DNA of 64,000 nt from an uncultured Bacilli bacterium (GCA_947628585.1 CANRAL010000001.1:3154-67153), one strand, 5' to 3'. Positions 53,776-63,379 are shown, numbered from the stretch's first letter. Notes: a model not told the origin generated them from the letters alone. Translations and numbers: made by a program.

Positions 53776-53882
53776 TTGTCAAACTTTTGTAAAGTTTTAT
53801 TTTTTGCAAAGCAAACCATTGATATATATATATATAGTAAAATGGGCTTTAGATAGAGTATTTGCGAAAGGATATGATATAT

Positions 53883-55775
53883 ATGAAAGGTAATAAAAAG
53901 TCTTTAATTTTATTAATTGTTGGCATATTTGTAATATTAATAGTTGTAATAGGAGCAACCTATGCATATTTTCAAAGTGTAAATGGTAATACAACAATTT
54001 CTAATATAAATACGACAACTGGAACAGTAGATAGTTTATCTTTTATTGGTGGAGATAATATAACTCTTGAAGTAAAACCAGATGAATTTAAATTAGGTGA
54101 TAGTAATCAAGAAGGAACAACAAATGTAAGTGCTACCTTAATAGCTAATAATACAACAAATGAAACAGAAGATTATAAATATAGTATATATTTAGAGATA
54201 ATAGAAAATAATTTGGAATATTCTTCATATAAAGATGAAGGAAAAGAAGACCCAATAGTATTTTTAAAAGAATATGATAAAACATTAGGAAATAATGTCG
54301 ATTATAATGGGTTAACTTTAGGGTATGAGGCGATACCTGAGTTATTTTTAACAGTAAAAGGACCAGATGGTTATGATGGAAATATAGAAGGATTAAATAA
54401 AGCAACATTAAAAGAAATAGATGATAGTTATGATATAACGGAGTTAAGAGAAGGAATATATCCTATAGTAGAAGATTATGTAATAAAAGTAAATAAAGAT
54501 AATCATGATATTGAAAAAGAAAATACAAAAACGGATAAATGGGAAATAACAATAACATTTAAGAACTTAGAAACAAATCAAGAATTAAATACAGGAAAAA
54601 GTTTTAAAGGAAGAATAAGAATTCAAGAAAAGAAAATAGCCAATGATTTAATGGATGTATGTAATGAAGGGGAAGAACTAGCTGAATGTATAAAAAAGTT
54701 ACATGATGAAAGTGAATATGGAGCAAGTAATCTAATCTATCATGATGGAAAAGCAGATTATGAAGGAGAAACAAATGCAAATTTAGAAGCCAATGATAAA
54801 AGTTATAGATATACAGGTTCATTCGAAAAAGTAAATAATTATATATGCTTAGGAACTGACTGTAATAATAAAGATAACTTATTTAGAATAATCGGAACAT
54901 TTGGAAGTGATGGGATAAAAGTAGTAAAAGCGGATTATGCAAATAAAGAATTATTAGGAGCTGGAACAACAAGTACCTTAGATTTTGAAGCGACTGATCC
55001 TGAAACTTATGGTTCATATTCTACAGTAAATGCTTATCAAAAATCTCAAGGTAGTAATGAAGAACAAGATGCATTTACTCATAGATATAAAGGCTTATTA
55101 GACCATGTAGATAGATATAGATGGCAAGAAAACGGAACAGAAGCAACAGTAGCAAATTGGGAAACATCATTACTTAATAAAATTCATTTAAATAAAAAAT
55201 ACATAAGTACAATAGAAGAAAAATATCGAGAATTAATACTGGAACATGAATGGATATATGGAAATAAGAATGCAACATGGGATAATATAGCAATAGCTAA
55301 TAATGTCAAAACAGTATATAATAATGAATTAGGAACAGATGCTCAAGATGATAAAAAAACCGATCCAGAATATATAGGCTTATTATATGTAAGTGATTAT
55401 TTATATGGCGCAGCACCAAAAAATTGGAATAAACAACCATTCACCGGAATATTGAATTATAATAAGGATACAGGAAAAACTGATAAAGATAAAAACCCAG
55501 CAGGAAGCTTCGCAGAAAAGACAATAGATAATGATTATCGTTCGGCAACAGATAGTAACTGGTTGTATATGGGTCTATGGGAATGGTTAATAATTCAAAG
55601 ATCCGATTCTCCTGTCTTTGCGTTCTATGTGGCTGCTACCGGTCTTGTCTACAACGACTTCTTTGTCGGCGCGTTCACGCTTGTGGTCCGCCCAACATTC
55701 TATATTAACAATGATGTTCAATTAGGTGGTGGAACAGGTACAATTAATGATCCATATACTTTAGTTGTTAATTAA
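53883..55775 (+). CDS. secreted protein with TasA/SipW-class-like signal peptide and C-terminal W.WL...VRP domain carrying an A-depleted patch
   Basis: ORF 53862..55775. ATG 53883 lies 10 nt after AAAGGA and gives MKGNKKSLILLIVGIFVILIVVIGATYAYFQS. C-terminus WEWLIIQRSDS...VRPTFYI...GTGTINDPYTL. Confidence 0.75.
   Translation: MKGNKKSLILLIVGIFVILIVVIGATYAYFQSVNGNTTISNINTTTGTVDSLSFIGGDNITLEVKPDEFKLGDSNQEGTTNVSATLIANNTTNETEDYKYSIYLEIIENNLEYSSYKDEGKEDPIVFLKEYDKTLGNNVDYNGLTLGYEAIPELFLTVKGPDGYDGNIEGLNKATLKEIDDSYDITELREGIYPIVEDYVIKVNKDNHDIEKENTKTDKWEITITFKNLETNQELNTGKSFKGRIRIQEKKIANDLMDVCNEGEELAECIKKLHDESEYGASNLIYHDGKADYEGETNANLEANDKSYRYTGSFEKVNNYICLGTDCNNKDNLFRIIGTFGSDGIKVVKADYANKELLGAGTTSTLDFEATDPETYGSYSTVNAYQKSQGSNEEQDAFTHRYKGLLDHVDRYRWQENGTEATVANWETSLLNKIHLNKKYISTIEEKYRELILEHEWIYGNKNATWDNIAIANNVKTVYNNELGTDAQDDKKTDPEYIGLLYVSDYLYGAAPKNWNKQPFTGILNYNKDTGKTDKDKNPAGSFAEKTIDNDYRSATDSNWLYMGLWEWLIIQRSDSPVFAFYVAATGLVYNDFFVGAFTLVVRPTFYINNDVQLGGGTGTINDPYTLVVN
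55602..55700 (+). other. adenine-depleted, GC3-rich patch (candidate DGR variable region)
   Basis: In 33 codons I count 20 ending in G/C, and none of the first 30 ends in A. Only 8 A in 88 nt (55606..55693). There is a sharp switch from the flanking AT-rich codon usage. Confidence 0.45.
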
Positions 55776-55853
55776 AAAAATAATTTGAATAAATTAAATA
55801 AATAAGATATACATATAGATATGTTACCGGTTAGGTAACACCTATTGTGATTA

Positions 55854-55884
55854 GATGCTACACCAATTGACTAGCATCTTTTTT
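55854..55884 (+). terminator. rho-independent terminator
   Basis: gatgcta / tagcatc stem followed by tttttt. Preceded by the tight hairpin gttacc/ggtaac at 55823..55839. Confidence 0.7.
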
Positions 55885-56206
55885 CCATATTAAATGTAAA
55901 ATAATAACAATTAATTAGATTATAATTACTAAGATGAGTATAAAACCCCCTCGTAAAAATTACTCATAAATATGGTAAGGTGCTACTAACAAGTAACAAA
56001 GACATTATTATAAGTGAAAAATAAGCAAAATCAAGGCTTTCGACAAAACTAGAAATTATTTTTGAAATAAAAAAATGGAGCCGCTTGTTGCGACTCCTAA
56101 AGAATAAAAAGGGGTTGACTAGTGTGATACTAGCACCAATTCGCCTTCTTTAAGTGAATTGGTGCTTATTATCCTAACCGATTTGTTCTACTTTGTCAAC
56201 ATTTTT

Positions 56207-56235
56207 TTGCAACTTTTTTAAAATTTTGTTATAAT
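56207..56235 (+). promoter_or_regulatory. sigmaA-type promoter of recG
   Basis: TTGCAA, 17 nt spacer, TATAAT. Confidence 0.6.
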
Positions 56236-56250
56236 TTTTTAGGAGATACT

Positions 56251-58233
56251 ATGAATATAGAACAACTAAAGGGAATTGGACCTAAAAATCAACTTATTTT
56301 TAATAAAATGGATATTTATACGGTTGAAGATTTAATAAATTATTTCCCTTATAAATATTTATTTATATGCTTTAAAGAATTAAAGAATTTAGAAGATAAT
56401 GAAAGCGCTTTTGTTAAAGCTCTTATTTTAACACCTCCAAAAGTTTATTACATAAGAAGAAATTTTAACTATTTAAGTTTTATGGTAAAGATTTCTGAAT
56501 TTGAAGTAAATGTTAAAATTTTTAATCGAGCTTTTATGCAAAATAATTTAAAAGTAGGACGAGAAATAGTATTAGTTGGTAAATACGATAAAATTAAAAA
56601 TTCATTCTTAGCAAGCGATATAAGATTTAATTTAGAAAATAATAAAATAGAACCTAAATATCATTTAGTAAGTGGTTTAAAAGAAAATTTTTTAGTAAAA
56701 GCAATTGATACTATTTTAACAAGTAAAATAAATTTTAATGATTATGTTCCAAATGAATATAATGAAAAATATAATTTAATATCTAAAAAAGAGGCATTAA
56801 ATTATATTCATAAACCCAACAATACTGAAGAAATCAAAAAAGCTAAGTTAAAATTAATATATGAAGAATTTTTTAATTATACTTTTAAAATAAATGCTTT
56901 AAAGTTAAAAAATAAAAAGGTTTTAGGAATTAAAAGAAATATAGATCAAGATAAAGTAGATTCTTTTTTAAGTGAATTGCCTTTTAAATTAACTACCGAT
57001 CAATTACAAACTATTACGGAAATAATAAAAGATTTAAATGGGGAAGAGAGAATGAATCGTCTTGTTCTAGGGGATGTAGGTAGTGGTAAAACAATTGTCG
57101 CTATAGTTAGTATTTTAGCTAATTATTTAAGTGGTTATGAAGCGGCTTTTATGGCTCCAACTGAAATATTAGCTAAGCAACACTATGAAACAATTAAAGG
57201 ATATTTAAATAATTTAAATATTGTTTTATTAACTGGCCATTTAAAGAAAAAAGAAAAACTTCAAATTTATGACCAAATAAAAGAAGGAAAAATTGATTTA
57301 GTAATTGGAACACATGCTTTAATAAATGATAATGTTATATTTAAAAAATTAGGTTTAGTTATAATTGATGAACAACATTTATTTGGGGTTAAGCAACGGA
57401 ATGCTTTGCAAGAAAAGGGAGAAATAAAGCCCGATGTTTTATATCTATCGGCAACACCTATTCCTCGAAGTTATGCCTTGTGTCTTTATGGAGACTTGGA
57501 TTTATCAATGATTAAAACTAAACCAAATAAAAGAAAAGAAGTAAAAACAATTATTAAAACGGAAAAAGAAATAAAAGACTGTCTTTATAAAATGCTTGAA
57601 GAAATTAAGTTGGGACATCAAGTTTTTGTAGTTTCACCTTTAATTAATGATGAAGAAGAAAAAAATGAAATAAATAGTGTAGTTAAATTAAAAGAAAAGT
57701 TAGAACTTGCTTTTCAAAATAAAATTGAAATAGCTATTATTCATGGTAAAATGAAACAAAATGAAAAAGATCAAATTATGGAAGATTTTTTAAATAAAAA
57801 AATAAAAATTCTTATTTCTACAACCGTAATTGAAGTAGGAATAGATATTCCTAATGCTACGATGATGGTTATTTTTAATGCGGAAAGATTTGGCTTAGCC
57901 GCTCTTCATCAATTAAGAGGAAGAGTAGGAAGAAATGACTTACAAAGTTATTGTTATTTAATAAGTAATCAAGATAATAAAAGATTAAAGGTTATGGAAG
58001 AAAGCAATGATGGTTTTTATATTAGCGAAAAAGATTTTGAACAAAGAGGCCAAGGCGATTTATTTGGTGTTCGGCAAAGTGGAGATATTATATTTAAAAT
58101 AGCTAGTATTCAAAATGATAGTAAAATATTATTACAAGCCAGTAAAGATTCTATGGATTATTTAGTAAATCATAAATATAAGAATAATAGTTATTATGAA
58201 AAAATCTTAGAAGAAATAAATTTTTTAGATTAA
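56251..58233 (+). CDS. recG: ATP-dependent DNA helicase RecG
   Basis: Wedge/OB N-terminus, LPFKLTTDQ, GDVGSGKT, DEQHLFGV, SATPIPRS, HGKMK and QLRGRVGR. Confidence 0.93.
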   Translation: MNIEQLKGIGPKNQLIFNKMDIYTVEDLINYFPYKYLFICFKELKNLEDNESAFVKALILTPPKVYYIRRNFNYLSFMVKISEFEVNVKIFNRAFMQNNLKVGREIVLVGKYDKIKNSFLASDIRFNLENNKIEPKYHLVSGLKENFLVKAIDTILTSKINFNDYVPNEYNEKYNLISKKEALNYIHKPNNTEEIKKAKLKLIYEEFFNYTFKINALKLKNKKVLGIKRNIDQDKVDSFLSELPFKLTTDQLQTITEIIKDLNGEERMNRLVLGDVGSGKTIVAIVSILANYLSGYEAAFMAPTEILAKQHYETIKGYLNNLNIVLLTGHLKKKEKLQIYDQIKEGKIDLVIGTHALINDNVIFKKLGLVIIDEQHLFGVKQRNALQEKGEIKPDVLYLSATPIPRSYALCLYGDLDLSMIKTKPNKRKEVKTIIKTEKEIKDCLYKMLEEIKLGHQVFVVSPLINDEEEKNEINSVVKLKEKLELAFQNKIEIAIIHGKMKQNEKDQIMEDFLNKKIKILISTTVIEVGIDIPNATMMVIFNAERFGLAALHQLRGRVGRNDLQSYCYLISNQDNKRLKVMEESNDGFYISEKDFEQRGQGDLFGVRQSGDIIFKIASIQNDSKILLQASKDSMDYLVNHKYKNNSYYEKILEEINFLD

Positions 58234-58270
58234 AAAAATGGACCCATAGGGTCCAAAGGGGGTTTTGGTT

Positions 58271-58351
58271 GATCTACAACTCACATTTATTAAATTATCG
58301 TAAGGTTGTAGATCGATTTGTTTTTTGCATAGCCATGGGCTATGCTATTTT
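58271..58351 (+). terminator. tandem terminator hairpins after recG
   Basis: gatctacaac / gttgtagatc 10-bp stem plus T-run, then gcatagcc / ggctatgc stem plus tatttt. A tggaccc/gggtcca hairpin precedes at 58239..58255. Confidence 0.65.
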
Positions 58352-58478
58352 AAATATAACGTGTTTTATTTTTTTTGTCAATTACTTTTTCAAAACTTTA
58401 CATAATAAATATTTCTTAAAATCTTTACAATAAAATAATAATTTTGATATAATTATTTTAATAGTAGGAGGATAAATT

Positions 58479-59048
58479 ATGAATGATGAAAAAAATAATC
58501 GGAAAGTAATTGTTGGTGTATTAATAATAATAGTGGCAATTGTATTTTTAGGTATCTCTTTTGCGTATTATATTATGGAGTTAAGTGGAACGGCTAATGT
58601 TGGTGTAGCTAAATGGAATGTTTTAGTAAATGGTTCAGCTTCTAAGACTTTTACTCCTAAGTTTACTTTAGATTCTAATGCAAATGTTGTTGATAATAAA
58701 TTGGCTCCAGCATCTTCAATGACGGGCAATATTGAAATAAATTTAGAAGGTACAGAAGTAGCAGTAGAAGTTTTAGCAAGTGTAGATACTAGCAAAATAA
58801 AAAATATAATTGGTGAATCTAAAATTTCGGTAGATGTTCAAATTGATGGAGTTGAAGATAACATTATTCGGTTACCTGAAGATGGTGCTTTTAATAATTC
58901 AAATGGTAAGAAAAATGTTGAAATAAAAATTACTTGGGATGATGATAATGGAAGTCATAATGAACAAGATACTATAATTGGTCAAACTATTGAAAATTTA
59001 GAAATACCTGTTACTTTAACAATTAAACAATATATTGAAAAGCAATAG
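58479..59048 (+). CDS. TasA/camelysin-like small secreted protein (SipW-class-like signal)
   Basis: VIVGVLIIIVAIVFLGISFAYY signal-anchor. VAKWNV and KLAPASSMTGNIEINLEG resemble the TasA L.PGD....F.N.G region. Confidence 0.6.
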   Translation: MNDEKNNRKVIVGVLIIIVAIVFLGISFAYYIMELSGTANVGVAKWNVLVNGSASKTFTPKFTLDSNANVVDNKLAPASSMTGNIEINLEGTEVAVEVLASVDTSKIKNIIGESKISVDVQIDGVEDNIIRLPEDGAFNNSNGKKNVEIKITWDDDNGSHNEQDTIIGQTIENLEIPVTLTIKQYIEKQ

Positions 59049-59058
59049 AGGTTTTTGA

Positions 59059-59565
59059 ATGAAATTAAAAAACAATACTTTAATTTTGTTTGTTTTATCT
59101 TTAATTCTATTAACTTTTATTATGCAAAGTTTTGCTATTTATGCTAGTAACTATGATAATTTAAACTTAGTATCAGTTGCAAAATGGCAATTTAATGAAG
59201 ATAACCCTTATGAAAAAATAACAATTAATTTAGATAATTCAGCCGATTTAACTAATTTAAGTGGCGGAAAAATAGCTCCTGGGAGTAAGGGAAATTTTAC
59301 AATTAAAGTATCTAATAAAACTAGTGATGTTGCTATTAATTATAAAATAGATATATTAGAATCTAATGTTCCTATGAATTTTCATATTACTAATTATGAA
59401 GAATTAAAAGAAGGATTATTAAATTATCATGAAGAAAAAGATCTTACTTTTTATTGGGAATGGGATTATTCTTCTTCTTTAGAAATGGATGAAGATGATT
59501 CTTTATACATGGGAAAAGATTTAATATTGAATTTAGCCATAACTGGTAGTCAAAAAATAAATTAA
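59059..59565 (+). CDS. TasA/camelysin-like small secreted protein (paralog)
   Basis: LILFVLSLILLTFIMQSFAIYAS signal. VAKWQF and KIAPGSKGNFTIKVSN parallel the preceding gene. Confidence 0.6.
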   Translation: MKLKNNTLILFVLSLILLTFIMQSFAIYASNYDNLNLVSVAKWQFNEDNPYEKITINLDNSADLTNLSGGKIAPGSKGNFTIKVSNKTSDVAINYKIDILESNVPMNFHITNYEELKEGLLNYHEEKDLTFYWEWDYSSSLEMDEDDSLYMGKDLILNLAITGSQKIN

Positions 59566-59584
59566 AAGAAGGAGGTTTAGATTA

Positions 59585-60124
59585 ATGTCAAAATTTTTAA
59601 ATATTTTAAAAAAGTATCGATATACGTTTTTAATTTTAATTATTTTGTTTATTTTTCTATCCTCTTTATTGGCAACTTATGCTCATTATGAAAGTAAAGT
59701 ATCTAAAGATGTTACGGCGAGTGTAGCATCTTTAATCTGTGAAATTGATAGTAAAGAACTTAATACTAATTTAGCTCGTGGAACCAAATTAGTTCATTAT
59801 TTTAATGTTAATAATTATAATGATTTAAAAACTACGGAAGTAGCATACGATTATTATATTTATATTTTAGATGAATATGAGGAAGTTATTTCGGATGCTA
59901 AATTATATAAATATGAACAAGTAGAATCGGATAATTTAATAACTAAGGAAAATCCTAATACATATAAAAAGTTATCTATGGAAGAAGTAGGGTATTTAAA
60001 TAGTTTTTATGGTGGTGAATTTTTTTTGGACAAAGGAACTCAAAAATTTAAATTGGAAATAGATAAAGTTAATACTAATAATATAAAAATTAAAGTAATA
60101 GGAGTTCAAAAAAATTTAAGTTAG
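59585..60124 (+). CDS. small secreted protein with the same signal type
   Basis: AAGGAGG RBS. FLILIILFIFLSSLLATYAHYES signal, then a beta-rich mature part. Confidence 0.55.
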   Translation: MSKFLNILKKYRYTFLILIILFIFLSSLLATYAHYESKVSKDVTASVASLICEIDSKELNTNLARGTKLVHYFNVNNYNDLKTTEVAYDYYIYILDEYEEVISDAKLYKYEQVESDNLITKENPNTYKKLSMEEVGYLNSFYGGEFFLDKGTQKFKLEIDKVNTNNIKIKVIGVQKNLS

Positions 60125-60133
60125 GAGATTATC

Positions 60134-62224
60134 ATGTTTAAAAATATAAAAACTAAAAAATATTTAATATATATTATATTAATAATAGTTGCTATTTTAG
60201 TAATTAATATTCATATTAGTTTTGCTAAGTTTGTCTATAATAATACTTTTTCTTTAAATTATAATTTAGTTGGAGAAGAATTTGAAGAAAGTGGTTTAAT
60301 AAATTCAGATTTATCATTAAAGGCTACAAGAGAAAATTTACTTAATCCTTATCGAGGATACTATGAGTTAGATAGTCCTAAGGTTTTTAGTTATGATGCT
60401 ACTAATATGGAAGCTAATGAGGCAAATAAAGAAGAATTTATTAAGCATGCTAAAACAGCGGTAGAAGAAATATTAGAAGAAAATGAAACATTAGGTTTAA
60501 TTGTATTTTATTTAAATAATTATAAAGAAATAAAGGAAATACCCGAATATGTTTTAAATTCTTTGAATGAATATATGGACGTATATCGGCAAAAGGGACT
60601 AAAAGCAATTGTAAGATTTGCTTATGGAGATACTCATATTGAAGGCCAAGAAGAAATAAATGATCCATCAGATTTTAGTATAATTTTAAATCATGTAGGA
60701 CAATTAAAAAATTTTTTTGAAGTAAATATGGATGTTATTCACATAGTTCAGTTAGGTTTTATTGGACCTTGGGGGGAAATGCATTCTAGTAAATATATTG
60801 GTGATGAAGTAGGTTCCATTTATTTAAAGCAATTGGTTAAAAAGGCTTTAGAAGTTGTTCCTTATCCGATGCAAATATCTTTACGGAGACCAAAATATTA
60901 TCGGGATTATTTTGATGAATCTTCCTTTTTTGATGAATCTTTAGGTTTAAGTTTAGATGAACACGCAAGGATTGGCTTATTTAATGATGCTTTTGTTTCT
61001 TCTAAAAGCGATATGGGCACTTACAAATCTGAAGAAAGGGAAAGTGAGTTGGAATGGCAAAGTTATTTAACTAAATATACCATTTTTGGGGGCGAAGTTG
61101 ATTATAAAGTTCCCGAAGATTATGTTTTAGAGGATAATCCTTATATAGCCATTAAAGAAGCTAAAAGAAATATGAAAATGGTTCATTTAAATTATTTACA
61201 TGATGCTTATTCTAGTTTATTTACTTATTGGCAAAATCAAATAGTTAGTGAAAGTGATGATAATTATTATTATGGAATGAATGCTTTAGATTATTTTGGT
61301 TTAAAAATGGGATATCGTTATTTAATAACTAGTGCTAAAGTACCAGGATATGTTGTTAAAAAGGGTGGTAAGGTTTATTTTGAAATAGATATAAAAAATG
61401 AAGGTTTTGGTAATTTAATTCACGAGGGAAAAGTATATGTCGTATTAGCTAAAGATGGAAAATATTATCGGGCTTTAACCGATAAAGATCCTCGAAAATG
61501 GGAAAGTAATGATACGGTTAAAGAAAGATTTGTTTTAAAAATACCTAGTAATATAGAAGAAGGAAAGTGGCAAATTTATTTAGTCCTTGCGGATAAATTT
61601 GATAGTTATGCAAAATATGAAAATGCTTATATCAAAATAGCCAATGAAAATGCTTATTTATCTCAAGTAAAAGGAAATTATATTGGTTCAATAGATATAG
61701 GGGGAGAAAGTGATAATGCCAATAATGGATTTTATCAACTTAATGGCACAGATACTACAATATTAGATAATGCTGTTTTGTATACTTTCGATAGAAATAT
61801 AACGATTGATGGTCAAAAAACCGATGAATATGAATGGTATGAAAATGAATTAATTTTTAATAATGAAGTAACAAGTGTTTACATGCGAACCGATGATAAT
61901 AATTTATACATTTTAGGAAAAATAGAAGGTTATGACTTAAGTCAACATAATATTCATATAAGTATAGAAACAATTAATAGTGGGGGCGATTATACATATA
62001 TGATCGAAAATGGTAGCGTATATGATGGAAGTTATGATGGTAAAGTTTCGGTTAATAGTGCTAGTAAAAGTAAAATAACATATAAAAAAGGAGAATATTT
62101 TGAATATCAAATTCCTAAAGATAGAATAAATATTAGTAAGGTAAATGATTTAATTAGAATAAAACTTAGTTATTTAGATAGTGCTTGGGATGCGGTATAT
62201 AAACAAGAAATAAATATTAATTAA
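60134..62224 (+). CDS. secreted DUF4874/DUF4832-like (glycoside-hydrolase-like TIM barrel) protein with the same signal type
   Basis: YLIYIILIIVAILVINIHISFAKF signal. LNPYRGYYEL and LGFIGPWGEMHSS motifs as I recall for DUF4874/DUF4832. Confidence 0.5.
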   Translation: MFKNIKTKKYLIYIILIIVAILVINIHISFAKFVYNNTFSLNYNLVGEEFEESGLINSDLSLKATRENLLNPYRGYYELDSPKVFSYDATNMEANEANKEEFIKHAKTAVEEILEENETLGLIVFYLNNYKEIKEIPEYVLNSLNEYMDVYRQKGLKAIVRFAYGDTHIEGQEEINDPSDFSIILNHVGQLKNFFEVNMDVIHIVQLGFIGPWGEMHSSKYIGDEVGSIYLKQLVKKALEVVPYPMQISLRRPKYYRDYFDESSFFDESLGLSLDEHARIGLFNDAFVSSKSDMGTYKSEERESELEWQSYLTKYTIFGGEVDYKVPEDYVLEDNPYIAIKEAKRNMKMVHLNYLHDAYSSLFTYWQNQIVSESDDNYYYGMNALDYFGLKMGYRYLITSAKVPGYVVKKGGKVYFEIDIKNEGFGNLIHEGKVYVVLAKDGKYYRALTDKDPRKWESNDTVKERFVLKIPSNIEEGKWQIYLVLADKFDSYAKYENAYIKIANENAYLSQVKGNYIGSIDIGGESDNANNGFYQLNGTDTTILDNAVLYTFDRNITIDGQKTDEYEWYENELIFNNEVTSVYMRTDDNNLYILGKIEGYDLSQHNIHISIETINSGGDYTYMIENGSVYDGSYDGKVSVNSASKSKITYKKGEYFEYQIPKDRINISKVNDLIRIKLSYLDSAWDAVYKQEININ

Positions 62225-62227
62225 ATA

Positions 62228-62262
62228 AAAAACAGAATGAAAGGAAATCTCATTCTGTTTTA
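62228..62262. terminator. bidirectional terminator between convergent genes
   Basis: aacagaatga / tcattctgtt 10-bp stem flanked by A- and T-runs. Confidence 0.7.
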
Positions 62263-62268
62263 AAATGG

Positions 62269-63258
62269 TTAACTTAAATTGTATTTATTAATAACATATT
62301 CTCTTGTACCATCCATTTTATAATGATAGTCTAGAACTAATTCGTTATTTAAAGTTAATTTAATTCGTACAGCGAAACCAACTAGACCAGTATTACTTAA
62401 ATTAGGTATTGGATCAATTTCTCGTGTTACTTCAATGGTTCCATTAAGATTTAATTTTTCAAATTCATTTTTAATTTTAGCAAGTTCACTATCTAAAATA
62501 GGAACTAATACTTCCGGAATATTTTCCTTATTATATACTAAACCATTTAAGGCACAATTATTTTCACTAATATCTACTGCGATAATGTATTTTTCTGTAT
62601 CAAAAGAATTATCTCCATAAGTACATTCAGGTTCTTTAGGTTTGCCTTCCCCAATTGTTAAAGTAGTTTTTATTGGATTACTTTGATTATTAGCTTCATC
62701 TTTAGCAATTATTTCAATTGGATAAGTACCATCTTCAGTAAATGAAGAATAATCGATATTTACGCCTTCTTGAGTCTTGGCTAAATTATAGAATTCTATA
62801 ATGCAGTCTTTATTACTATTGTCAGTACAGCTTTCAACAAAATCTAAGGCCGTATAGGTAGCTCCTTTTTCAATTTTTAATTCCTTTAAAACTAATACGG
62901 GACTAAGAGTATCTACAATTTTTAAAGTTGATGTATATTTTTTATTATGAACTTTAATAAATACTTGATATTCGCCAATATTTTGTAAATTTATATCCGG
63001 ATATTCAACAACAATATCACTTTCTTTAACGTTTTCTAATTTGGAAAAAAATGTTGTTTTATTTGGTAAAGAACCATTAACTTCAATTGCGACTGAATCT
63101 CGAAGTTCAACTACAGCTCCGCTTGGTAGCAAATTATTAAAATAATGAGCTATAAAAAAACATGAAACGATACCTATTAAGCATACACTTATAATGATAA
63201 TTTGGGTAATTGTTTTCTTTTTATTTCGAACTTTTTGTTTAAAAAATTTATTAGCCAT
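62269..63258 (-). CDS. membrane-anchored protein with Ig-like (DUF5011-type) extracellular domains
   Basis: ORF to 63291. ATG 63258 follows GGAGGA. TM IIIISVCLIGIVSCFFIA, and DTLSPVLVLKELKIEKGATYTALDF resembles DUF5011 repeats. Confidence 0.6.
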   Translation of the reverse strand: MANKFFKQKVRNKKKTITQIIIISVCLIGIVSCFFIAHYFNNLLPSGAVVELRDSVAIEVNGSLPNKTTFFSKLENVKESDIVVEYPDINLQNIGEYQVFIKVHNKKYTSTLKIVDTLSPVLVLKELKIEKGATYTALDFVESCTDNSNKDCIIEFYNLAKTQEGVNIDYSSFTEDGTYPIEIIAKDEANNQSNPIKTTLTIGEGKPKEPECTYGDNSFDTEKYIIAVDISENNCALNGLVYNKENIPEVLVPILDSELAKIKNEFEKLNLNGTIEVTREIDPIPNLSNTGLVGFAVRIKLTLNNELVLDYHYKMDGTREYVINKYNLS

Positions 63259-63379
63259 AAGTTCCTCCTTCATATAAATAAAATTATTCAAAGTAATAAT
63301 ATCATAAATTAAAGAATTAAACCATAAAATATCGTAAAAAATGTTGTTTTTGTTGTCAAATTATGTTATTATCTATATT

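Follow-up and report, generated by a model that had tools for sequence, protein, structure and literature searches.

Candidate SipW-class leaders shared by an orphan fibre-type operon and a retroelement-varied protein family in an uncultured Bacilli bacterium

Results

Five predicted exported proteins encoded in a 64-kb stretch of DNA from an uncultured Bacilli bacterium (GCA_947628585.1 CANRAL010000001.1:3154-67153; i.e. G000:C1:3154-67153, hereafter the window) share one type of N-terminal leader, which probably belongs to the SipW-dependent class of Sec signal peptides (i.e. that of the endoplasmic reticulum (ER)/archaeal-type signal peptidase I). Three small proteins (s1, s2 and s3) and a DUF4874/DUF4832 enzyme would constitute an orphan fibre-type operon, a 630-aa protein (protein 1) would belong to a separate family varied by a diversity-generating retroelement (DGR), and the leaders of both would be processed in trans. 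This assignment draws on enrichment of the leader motif, conservation of the predicted site, SipW genes elsewhere in the genome, linkage of SipW genes to related operons, a fusion of an s1-type module to the enzyme and a DGR signature in protein 1. In the proposed mechanism, the proteins would be exported by Sec and cut at [ST]-[FY]-A↓x-[FY] (the arrow marks the cut) by the SipW-type peptidase encoded on contig C2 or C32. The freed N-terminal segment, disordered in structural models, would then take the part of a donor strand, in the manner of TasA (PMC9674648) and BsaA (PMC11580942), and s1-s3 would polymerise into a surface or matrix fibre carrying the enzyme. Two systems with one leader type are envisaged: (A) the operon at 58479-62224 and (B) protein 1, one of 28 dispersed paralogues that combine the leader with an N-terminal module (N-module) and a lectin-like head rewritten by the DGR.

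The source genome (G000) is a 1.24-Mb draft with ~25% G+C and 95% completeness. C numbers denote its contigs, L numbers denote loci and G001-G024 are genomes of the same genus; open reading frame (ORF) calls on other contigs and loci are the authors' own. The five genes and their predicted sites are as follows, in positions of the window.

53883-55775, + strand: protein 1 (630 aa), with alternative starts at 53862 and 53874
53958-53972, + strand: predicted site T-Y-A↓Y-F of protein 1 (P3 to P2')
58479-59048, + strand: s1 (189 aa), a small exported protein modelled as a beta-sandwich and a candidate major subunit
58557-58571, + strand: predicted site S-F-A↓Y-Y of s1
59059-59565, + strand: s2 (168 aa), a paralogue of s1
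59128-59142, + strand: predicted site S-F-A↓I-Y of s2
59585-60124, + strand: s3 (179 aa), a third small exported protein and more distant paralogue
59675-59689, + strand: predicted site T-Y-A↓H-Y of s3
60134-62224, + strand: DUF4874/DUF4832 enzyme (696 aa), the putative cargo and last operon gene
60218-60232, + strand: predicted site S-F-A↓K-F of the enzyme

The five leaders share a conserved predicted cleavage site

An initial annotation of the window had proposed that these five N-termini follow a single design resembling the TasA leader. All five ORFs were recovered, and each began with a basic stretch and a hydrophobic segment of ~17-20 residues followed by [ST]-[FY]-A-x-[FY]. Chance occurrence was assessed by counting [ST][FYW]A.[FYW] in the ORF set of the whole genome, with the residues beyond position 90 as background. 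The motif was found 17 times in these 265,378 background residues and 25 times where one of the proteome's 388 N-terminal hydrophobic segments ends, as compared to an expectation of ~0.5. The 25 proteins comprised the five window proteins, ~15 paralogues of the 630-aa protein, three tandem 300-aa proteins on C12, one 206-aa protein and one YceG/MltG homologue.

Conservation of the site was examined in the families of s1 (127 sequences) and protein 1 (46 homologues). The s1 family had T/S at P3 in 94%, Y/F at P2 in 93%, A/S at P1 in 99% and Y/F at P2' in 97% of sequences, and the protein-1 family had T at P3 in 98%, with Y at P2, A at P1, Y/F at P1' and F at P2' in 100%. Both families had the site as the best-conserved part of the N-terminus and a hydrophobic core ahead of it that varied freely, which is the signature of a recognition site. 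With its small P3 residue, Ala at P1 and aromatic residues at P2 and P2', the predicted site corresponds in sequence to the TasA site T-W-A↓A-F, in agreement with the likeness first suggested. The aromatic P2 and P2' residues of TasA make a poor LepB substrate, and SipW is a dedicated ER-type Ser-His peptidase (PMC10269814). In AlphaFold2 (AF2) models of s1 and of protein 1, a disordered segment of ~15 residues lay right behind the motif, and residues 28-38 of TasA, straight after the cut, constitute its donor strand, which TapA mimics (PMC9674648).

Leaders of type IV or Tad pilins were ruled out, as the motif follows rather than precedes the hydrophobic segment and there is no G↓F/M...E site. 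A further exported protein of 399 aa (C17:17887-19086, locus L016) has a TasA-like start (...GISYSAFFS...TTGTLNV) and a CarboxypepD_reg-like domain and scored 13.7 bits against the N-terminal part of Peptidase_M73. By its sequence, this protein may be another SipW client with a shifted motif.

SipW-type peptidases are encoded outside the window and beside related operons

No SipW gene was found in the window, as noted in the initial annotation, and both SipW-type genes of the genome lay on other contigs. The products of C2:3815-4591 (258 aa) and C32:4040-5134 (364 aa, with a long N-terminal part of multiple transmembrane segments) scored 88.9 and 87.9 bits, respectively, with TIGR02228 (cut-off, 51.85 bits), and both keep the Ser-His-Asp triad. 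The search for SipW elsewhere in the genome that the annotation had recommended was therefore positive, and its scenario of ordinary uncleaved anchors in a genome devoid of SipW does not apply. One ordinary LepB-type peptidase (TIGR02227, 127 bits) is also encoded, indicating that the SipW types are additional enzymes. Of the 24 same-genus genomes, 22 had a C2-type SipW gene, one per genome, and the two without it are 64% and 83% complete. Tad-like genes adjoin the C2 SipW gene, a matter apart from the leader motif.

A second SipW system was located at C32:3562-6052 (loci L002 and L064) beside a large serine recombinase gene. This locus encodes a 166-aa small protein (leader ...AVGYSTFATDF), the 364-aa SipW and a 305-aa membrane protein. 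The layout agrees with that of the second cluster of L014 (L014:15971-18953), whose third gene is annotated as DUF5305; the 305-aa protein holds the same position and gave no match in a Pfam scan.

Loci related to the window operon were collected by a scan of one genome per species, which yielded 44 loci in metagenome-assembled genomes of uncultured gut Bacilli and Clostridia. SipW-like genes were detected in these loci with an in-house hidden Markov model (HMM) derived from five seeds, including the two TIGR02228-positive genes of this genome and two L014 ORFs with Peptidase_S24/S26 matches. A SipW-like ORF was detected in 43 of the 44 loci, mostly directly upstream of the s1 homologue and often with a second one 2-4 kb downstream. 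For the 80 motif-bearing ORFs of these loci, the median distance to a SipW-like ORF was 92 bp, and all except one (i.e. 79 of 80) were within 3 kb. Typically, sipW came first, then s1, a paralogue with a membrane anchor, s2, s3, another sipW and lastly the gene for a large protein bearing this leader. Of these loci, L018 and L020 are the nearest to the window operon and contained, in this order, sipW, s1, the membrane paralogue, s2, s3 and the DUF4874/DUF4832 enzyme, and the window operon has the same genes minus sipW and the membrane paralogue, of which no copy was found in this genome. As the small-protein genes of the relatives adjoin SipW-like genes, the window operon can be regarded as an orphan copy of a widespread sipW-linked operon and, judged by gene content, appears to have lost both sipW genes and the membrane paralogue. 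It must therefore rely on a peptidase encoded elsewhere, if its products are processed at all. Among the 24 same-genus genomes, a clear s1 homologue was found in three (G004, G011 and G015), indicating a patchy distribution of the operon in the genus, and in all three an extra SipW gene adjoins it.

The full Ser-His-Asp triad was kept in 63 of the 79 SipW-like ORFs of the related loci. In one subclade of operons (L034:8336-8953, L014:9392-9946, L037:9344-9916 and ~9 others), the catalytic serine is gone from the upstream SipW-like gene (SGSMEP to LD[DG][DKN]M[DE]) and Ser-His-Asp is kept in the downstream copy. By their sequences, the serine-less copies look like pseudo-peptidase partners.

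Several results count against processing of the window proteins by SipW. TIGR04088, the model of the SipW-cognate signal whose use had been proposed with the initial annotation, scored 16.1 bits on the N-terminus of protein 1 (cut-off, 19) and gave no match for the other four window proteins, such that no window protein was recovered by this model; one protein-1 paralogue on C40 scored 19.3 bits. In the AF2 models of s1 and of protein 1 (residues 1-262), the helix ran straight through the motif. The window operon has no sipW of its own, and the homologues of protein 1 elsewhere have, as in the window, housekeeping neighbours and no peptidase nearby. The C2 SipW is 30-37% identical to the operon-linked SipWs. 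Owing to this distance, processing in trans is an assumption, and either SipW-type enzyme may serve the operon; the same identity values, together with conservation of the type once per genome across the genus, do not support a recent translocation of the C2 gene from the window operon. Lastly, the motif is also borne by the YceG/MltG homologue (C39:4630-5661), a housekeeping protein that is normally an uncleaved membrane anchor and in which GATFAWYF ends the N-terminal helix. The motif alone is thus no proof of processing, and this occurrence may be either a single chance match, as the expectation allows, or a sign of wider use of the site in the genus.

Two alternatives follow from these observations. 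The N-termini could be uncleaved signal anchors whose motif acts as an aromatic belt at the membrane-water interface, an explanation that would accommodate the continuous helix of the models, the motif in a classically anchored protein such as YceG/MltG, the absence of a peptidase gene from the window operon and the reported membrane anchoring of BsaA oligomers via the leader before cleavage (PMC11580942). It is nevertheless quite improbable, since conservation falls precisely on P3, P2, P1 and P2', where the small-x-Ala rule is obeyed, and not on the variable helix ahead of them, the motif is common to unrelated mature domains and the motif genes lie close to SipW-like genes in the related loci. 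Alternatively, the single general LepB-type peptidase could cut all of these leaders, with the SipW types serving only their own neighbours (e.g. in the C32 locus). The lack of sipW in the operon, the presence of a LepB-type enzyme and the distant kinship of the C2 SipW to operon-linked SipWs would fit with this explanation, as would a site that obeys the ordinary -3/-1 rule; SignalP-type predictors find TasA unremarkable too (PMC10269814). General cleavage by LepB is likewise judged very unlikely: aromatic residues at P2 and P2' hamper cutting by LepB (PMC10269814) and are found here in 93-100% of sequences, the relatives hold one or two dedicated SipW genes per operon and, in 22 of the 24 same-genus genomes, one SipW-type gene occurs alongside a protein-1 family of 7-45 copies. 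The pattern of conservation and the SipW linkage hence weigh against both alternatives, and SipW-dependent leaders are preferred.

The small proteins form a tight operon with a DUF4874/DUF4832 enzyme

The genes for s1, s2, s3 and the enzyme (58479-62224) are separated by gaps of 10, 19 and 9 bp. s2 was related to s1 by phmmer (E = 4e-4 within the proteome) and fits the s1-family alignment (A1); s3 has orthologues in L018 (5e-50) and L020 (4e-43) and gave weak matches to s1/s2-type proteins. The s2 orthologues hold the same operon position in L018 and L020. The VAKW and K(L/I)AP segments, which the initial annotation had described as shared and as resembling the TasA/camelysin core, were indeed common to s1 and s2 and contain residues invariant in the family (A44, W46, A76 and P77 in A1); their likeness to the TasA/camelysin core was weakly supported, as set out below. 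s1 had 21 close homologues, and a profile search retrieved 4,249 representative clusters at E<=1e-3. Pfam and NCBIfam scans of the 127 s1 relatives identified no consistent domain family and those of the window proteins found nothing relevant for the small proteins. The s1 module was also observed as the N-terminal part of longer proteins with varied C-terminal domains.

Kinship with TasA and BsaA was investigated by profile and structure comparisons. The AF2 model of s1 was a beta-sandwich with a mean predicted local distance difference test score (pLDDT) of 79.7, and the top Foldseek match of this model was the TasA fibre (8aur_A; E = 1.1e-3, probability 0.99, template modelling (TM) score 0.33). 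The next matches (TM ~0.3) were the donor-strand-exchange subunits FimG, CS20, FimI, PapH and CanA. Weak matches among the 127 s1 relatives were obtained with TIGR04088 (8/127), TIGR04087 (TapA; 8/127) and TIGR04090 (BsaA family; 4/127), the best being 2.3e-6. In addition, an alignment of the BsaA family, built from loci found with TIGR04090, was compared with the s1 family using hhalign, giving a probability of 91% and E = 1e-6 over 51 columns, i.e. the leader, site and first strand. These similarities are suggestive of a divergent branch of the TasA superfamily, which on the strength of the models would contain the small proteins without placing them in any described family.

The 696-aa protein was confirmed as a DUF4874/DUF4832 protein, with matches above the gathering scores for DUF4874 (residues 71-255; 119.3 bits, 1.6e-34) and, after it, DUF4832 (residues 279-504; 160.8 bits, 5.2e-47). 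A C-terminal region of ~190 aa extends beyond DUF4832. PDB sequence searches with the enzyme and with its profile found no relative. A31, K32 and F33 are invariant in the orthologues of the enzyme, whose gene is the last of the operon in L018 and L020 too. A single 669-aa ORF at L050:4035-6044 has the leader and an s1-type module (residues 17-193) fused to the enzyme (residues 290-668), which argues for a physical partnership between the enzyme and the s1-type module. Genes for DUF4832 proteins are accessory genes of Gram-positive Pel exopolysaccharide loci (bioRxiv 10.1101/768473), and by this analogy a matrix-polysaccharide role for the enzyme is plausible.

Formation of a fibre by s1-s3 was weighed against a different function. 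The leaders could be SipW-dependent with the small proteins being monomeric secreted or wall-associated beta-sandwich proteins (e.g. partners of the enzyme in carbohydrate binding or scaffolding) and protein 1 being a stand-alone hypervariable receptor-binding protein. Failure of the profile searches speaks for this possibility and against a fibre: Peptidase_M73 (PF12389), TIGR04089 and TIGR04090 matched no window protein, a search with Peptidase_M73/TasA models having been recommended in the initial annotation. TIGR04089 and TIGR04090 gave no match anywhere in the genome (for TIGR04090 at E<=10; cut-off, 60 bits), and a whole-genome search with Peptidase_M73 produced only two sub-threshold N-terminal matches, both outside the window; the same model had only one match in 399 sampled genomes. 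A PDB sequence search with the s1 profile gave no match, the similarity to the BsaA profile ends after 51 columns and TasA is matched only marginally in structure. Weak Pfam similarities to Ig-like domains and to the N-domains of carbohydrate esterases, and an N-module in protein 1 lacking a fibre-like match, point in the same direction. This non-fibre function is possible but doubtful, given that an operon of three paralogous small subunits with a cargo parallels the layouts of TasA/TapA and BsaA/BsaB/BsaC (PMC11580942, PMC9674648), the Foldseek matches are mostly donor-strand-exchange subunits, the s1 module acts as an N-terminal carrier for varied C-terminal domains and the disordered post-cleavage segment is conserved in length in the two AF2 models. 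A fibre-type operon remains the favoured explanation.

Other features of the region comprise recG and three sequence patterns, all of the latter being pattern matches only.

56251-58233: recG, between the 630-aa gene and the four-gene operon
58327-58345: terminator-like hairpin after recG
58424-58453, + strand: promoter-like site (TTTACA, 18-nt spacer, TG-TATAAT; 11/12 consensus matches), 25 bp 5' of s1
62229-62261: hairpin with a 14-bp stem, between the enzyme gene and a convergent gene (62269-63291)

From its position and sequence, the last hairpin is likely to be the operon end. The convergent neighbour (62269-63291, - strand) encodes a protein of 340 aa with an N-terminal membrane helix and weak Ig-like matches (LapB repeat, InlK_D3). 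This helix ends in FIAHYF and therefore lacks the small P3 residue of the leader motif.

The 630-aa protein belongs to a multigene family with a retroelement-varied head

Protein 1 consists of the SipW-class leader, a conserved N-module of ~250 aa modelled as a beta-sandwich, a middle region and, at the C-terminus, a lectin-like domain that contains the DGR variable region. The first 262 residues matched 28 places in this genome. Copies of the N-module numbered 7-45 in each of the 24 same-genus genomes (0.9-1.5 Mb) and none were found in 16 genomes from other families. For genomes of this size, so large a lineage-specific expansion is unusual. The AF2 model of residues 1-262 was a beta-sandwich (pLDDT 80.8) and had no significant match among PDB structures (best E = 0.011), which counts as a further point against a fibre role; a TasA-like fold was not shown for the N-module and it cannot be called TasA-like.

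The variable patch that had been suspected in protein 1 was identified as a DGR variable region, aligning to a template repeat beside a reverse transcriptase gene on C16.

55602-55700, + strand: DGR variable region of protein 1

Mismatches to the template were present at 16 of 27 template adenines as compared to 9 of 72 other bases, with a one-codon indel, and the same adenine-biased pattern was observed in about ten paralogous variable regions. This bias, together with the template and reverse transcriptase on C16, indicates that protein 1 is a retroelement-diversified, lectin-headed surface protein. The DGR cassette (C16:21620-26746; loci L061 and L062) contains the reverse transcriptase gene (C16:22925-23998, - strand; RVT_1 match), the template repeat near C16:24868-24950 and an adjacent target gene (C16:25043-26746).

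The initial annotation had placed the enzyme and a hypervariable adhesin in one matrix locus. This proposal was not sustained, as recG intervenes and the 630-aa gene belongs to a dispersed family; the two systems share a leader type. A further set of genes with this leader was found at C12:12489-15713, a tandem array of three paralogues (295-335 aa) immediately next to rpsI/rplM. Their products share with the 630-aa family the leader and the ~20 residues that follow it (leader and post-site segment VVGATFAYFTAQNGN) and ~140 residues of the N-module at 27-30% identity. From these sequences, the C12 proteins are candidate abundant shaft or surface-layer subunits.

Discussion

Biofilms of Bacillus and Clostridium have SipW-dependent fibres of the TasA type as their main protein scaffold. 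The uncultured Bacilli with small genomes that commonly inhabit animal guts are almost uncharacterised in their surface structures. The small-protein family described here is large (4,249 clusters), has no Pfam or NCBIfam model and is tied by gene order to SipW-like peptidases in almost all loci inspected. The same leader occurs on an enzyme and on a multigene hypervariable lectin-headed family (28 in this genome). An operon without its own peptidase gene would, if functional, provide a natural test of trans-processing. If the donor-strand idea is true, it would explain how variable adhesins and enzymes are attached to the surface without sortase signals and would offer simple experimental handles in the form of a five-residue site and a dedicated peptidase.

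An extension of this idea, which is considered unlikely, is that SipW cleavage bares a common N-terminal donor strand that acts as a universal plug. Shafts, made of s1-s3 for the operon and of the C12 proteins for the protein-1 family, could then take dozens of interchangeable heads, among them the 28 lectin proteins and enzymes such as the DUF4874/DUF4832 protein, with one genus-conserved peptidase acting in trans. A gut bacterium of 1.2 Mb would, if this were true, display a fast-evolving, modular and fibre-borne repertoire of binding and enzyme functions.

Comparison with known systems

As judged from sequence comparisons, the window operon resembles the TasA, BsaA and AbpX systems in layout yet fails the profile tests of each family. 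Likeness to tapA-sipW-tasA of B. subtilis (and sipW-tasA-calY of B. cereus) lies in the T-[aromatic]-A↓x-[aromatic] leader, which in those systems is cut by a dedicated ER-type Ser-His signal peptidase, and in small beta-sandwich subunits with an accessory paralogue sharing the N-terminus and a new N-terminus that acts as donor strand, a role that would be assumed here by the freed segment. The TasA fibre is also the best, albeit marginal, PDB match of the s1 model. The differences are that the window proteins have no Peptidase_M73 match, that there are three small paralogues instead of TasA plus TapA and that the operon lacks sipW and is closed by an enzyme with the same leader.

The sipW-bsaA-bsaB-bsaC operon of C. 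perfringens encodes paralogous subunits and a large cargo protein (PMC11580942). It resembles the relatives of the window operon in being sipW-linked and in having TasA-like paralogues followed by a large cargo protein dependent on SipW, a dependence that is predicted for the relatives. The weak TIGR04090 matches of four of the 127 s1 relatives and the 91% probability given by hhalign for the leader and first strand are in keeping with this likeness. In contrast, the similarity stops before the domain, the window proteins miss TIGR04090 and a DUF4874/DUF4832 enzyme stands in place of a vWA protein as the cargo.

Loci of the AbpX type within the TasA superfamily (bioRxiv 10.64898/2026.01.04.697558) are likened here by their published layout, in which a dedicated signal peptidase I is encoded in a cluster with minor subunits and tip proteins. 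Contig C32 of the same genome, with its small subunit, SipW of multiple transmembrane segments and protein at the position of the DUF5305 accessory, appears from gene order to carry a separate AbpX-type locus. The relatives of the window operon differ from this type in having short SipWs of a two-transmembrane type and no DUF5305 partner.

Protein 1 is comparable to DGR variable proteins with C-type-lectin-fold tips (i.e. Mtd of a Bordetella phage and TvpA of Treponema denticola) in its lectin-like end, in differences from the template that are mostly at adenines and in the reverse transcriptase encoded on C16. Unlike Mtd and TvpA, there are ~11 close paralogous targets per template, these targets carry a SipW-class leader and a conserved N-module, and this N-module is common to the three tandem 300-aa proteins encoded beside rpsI/rplM.

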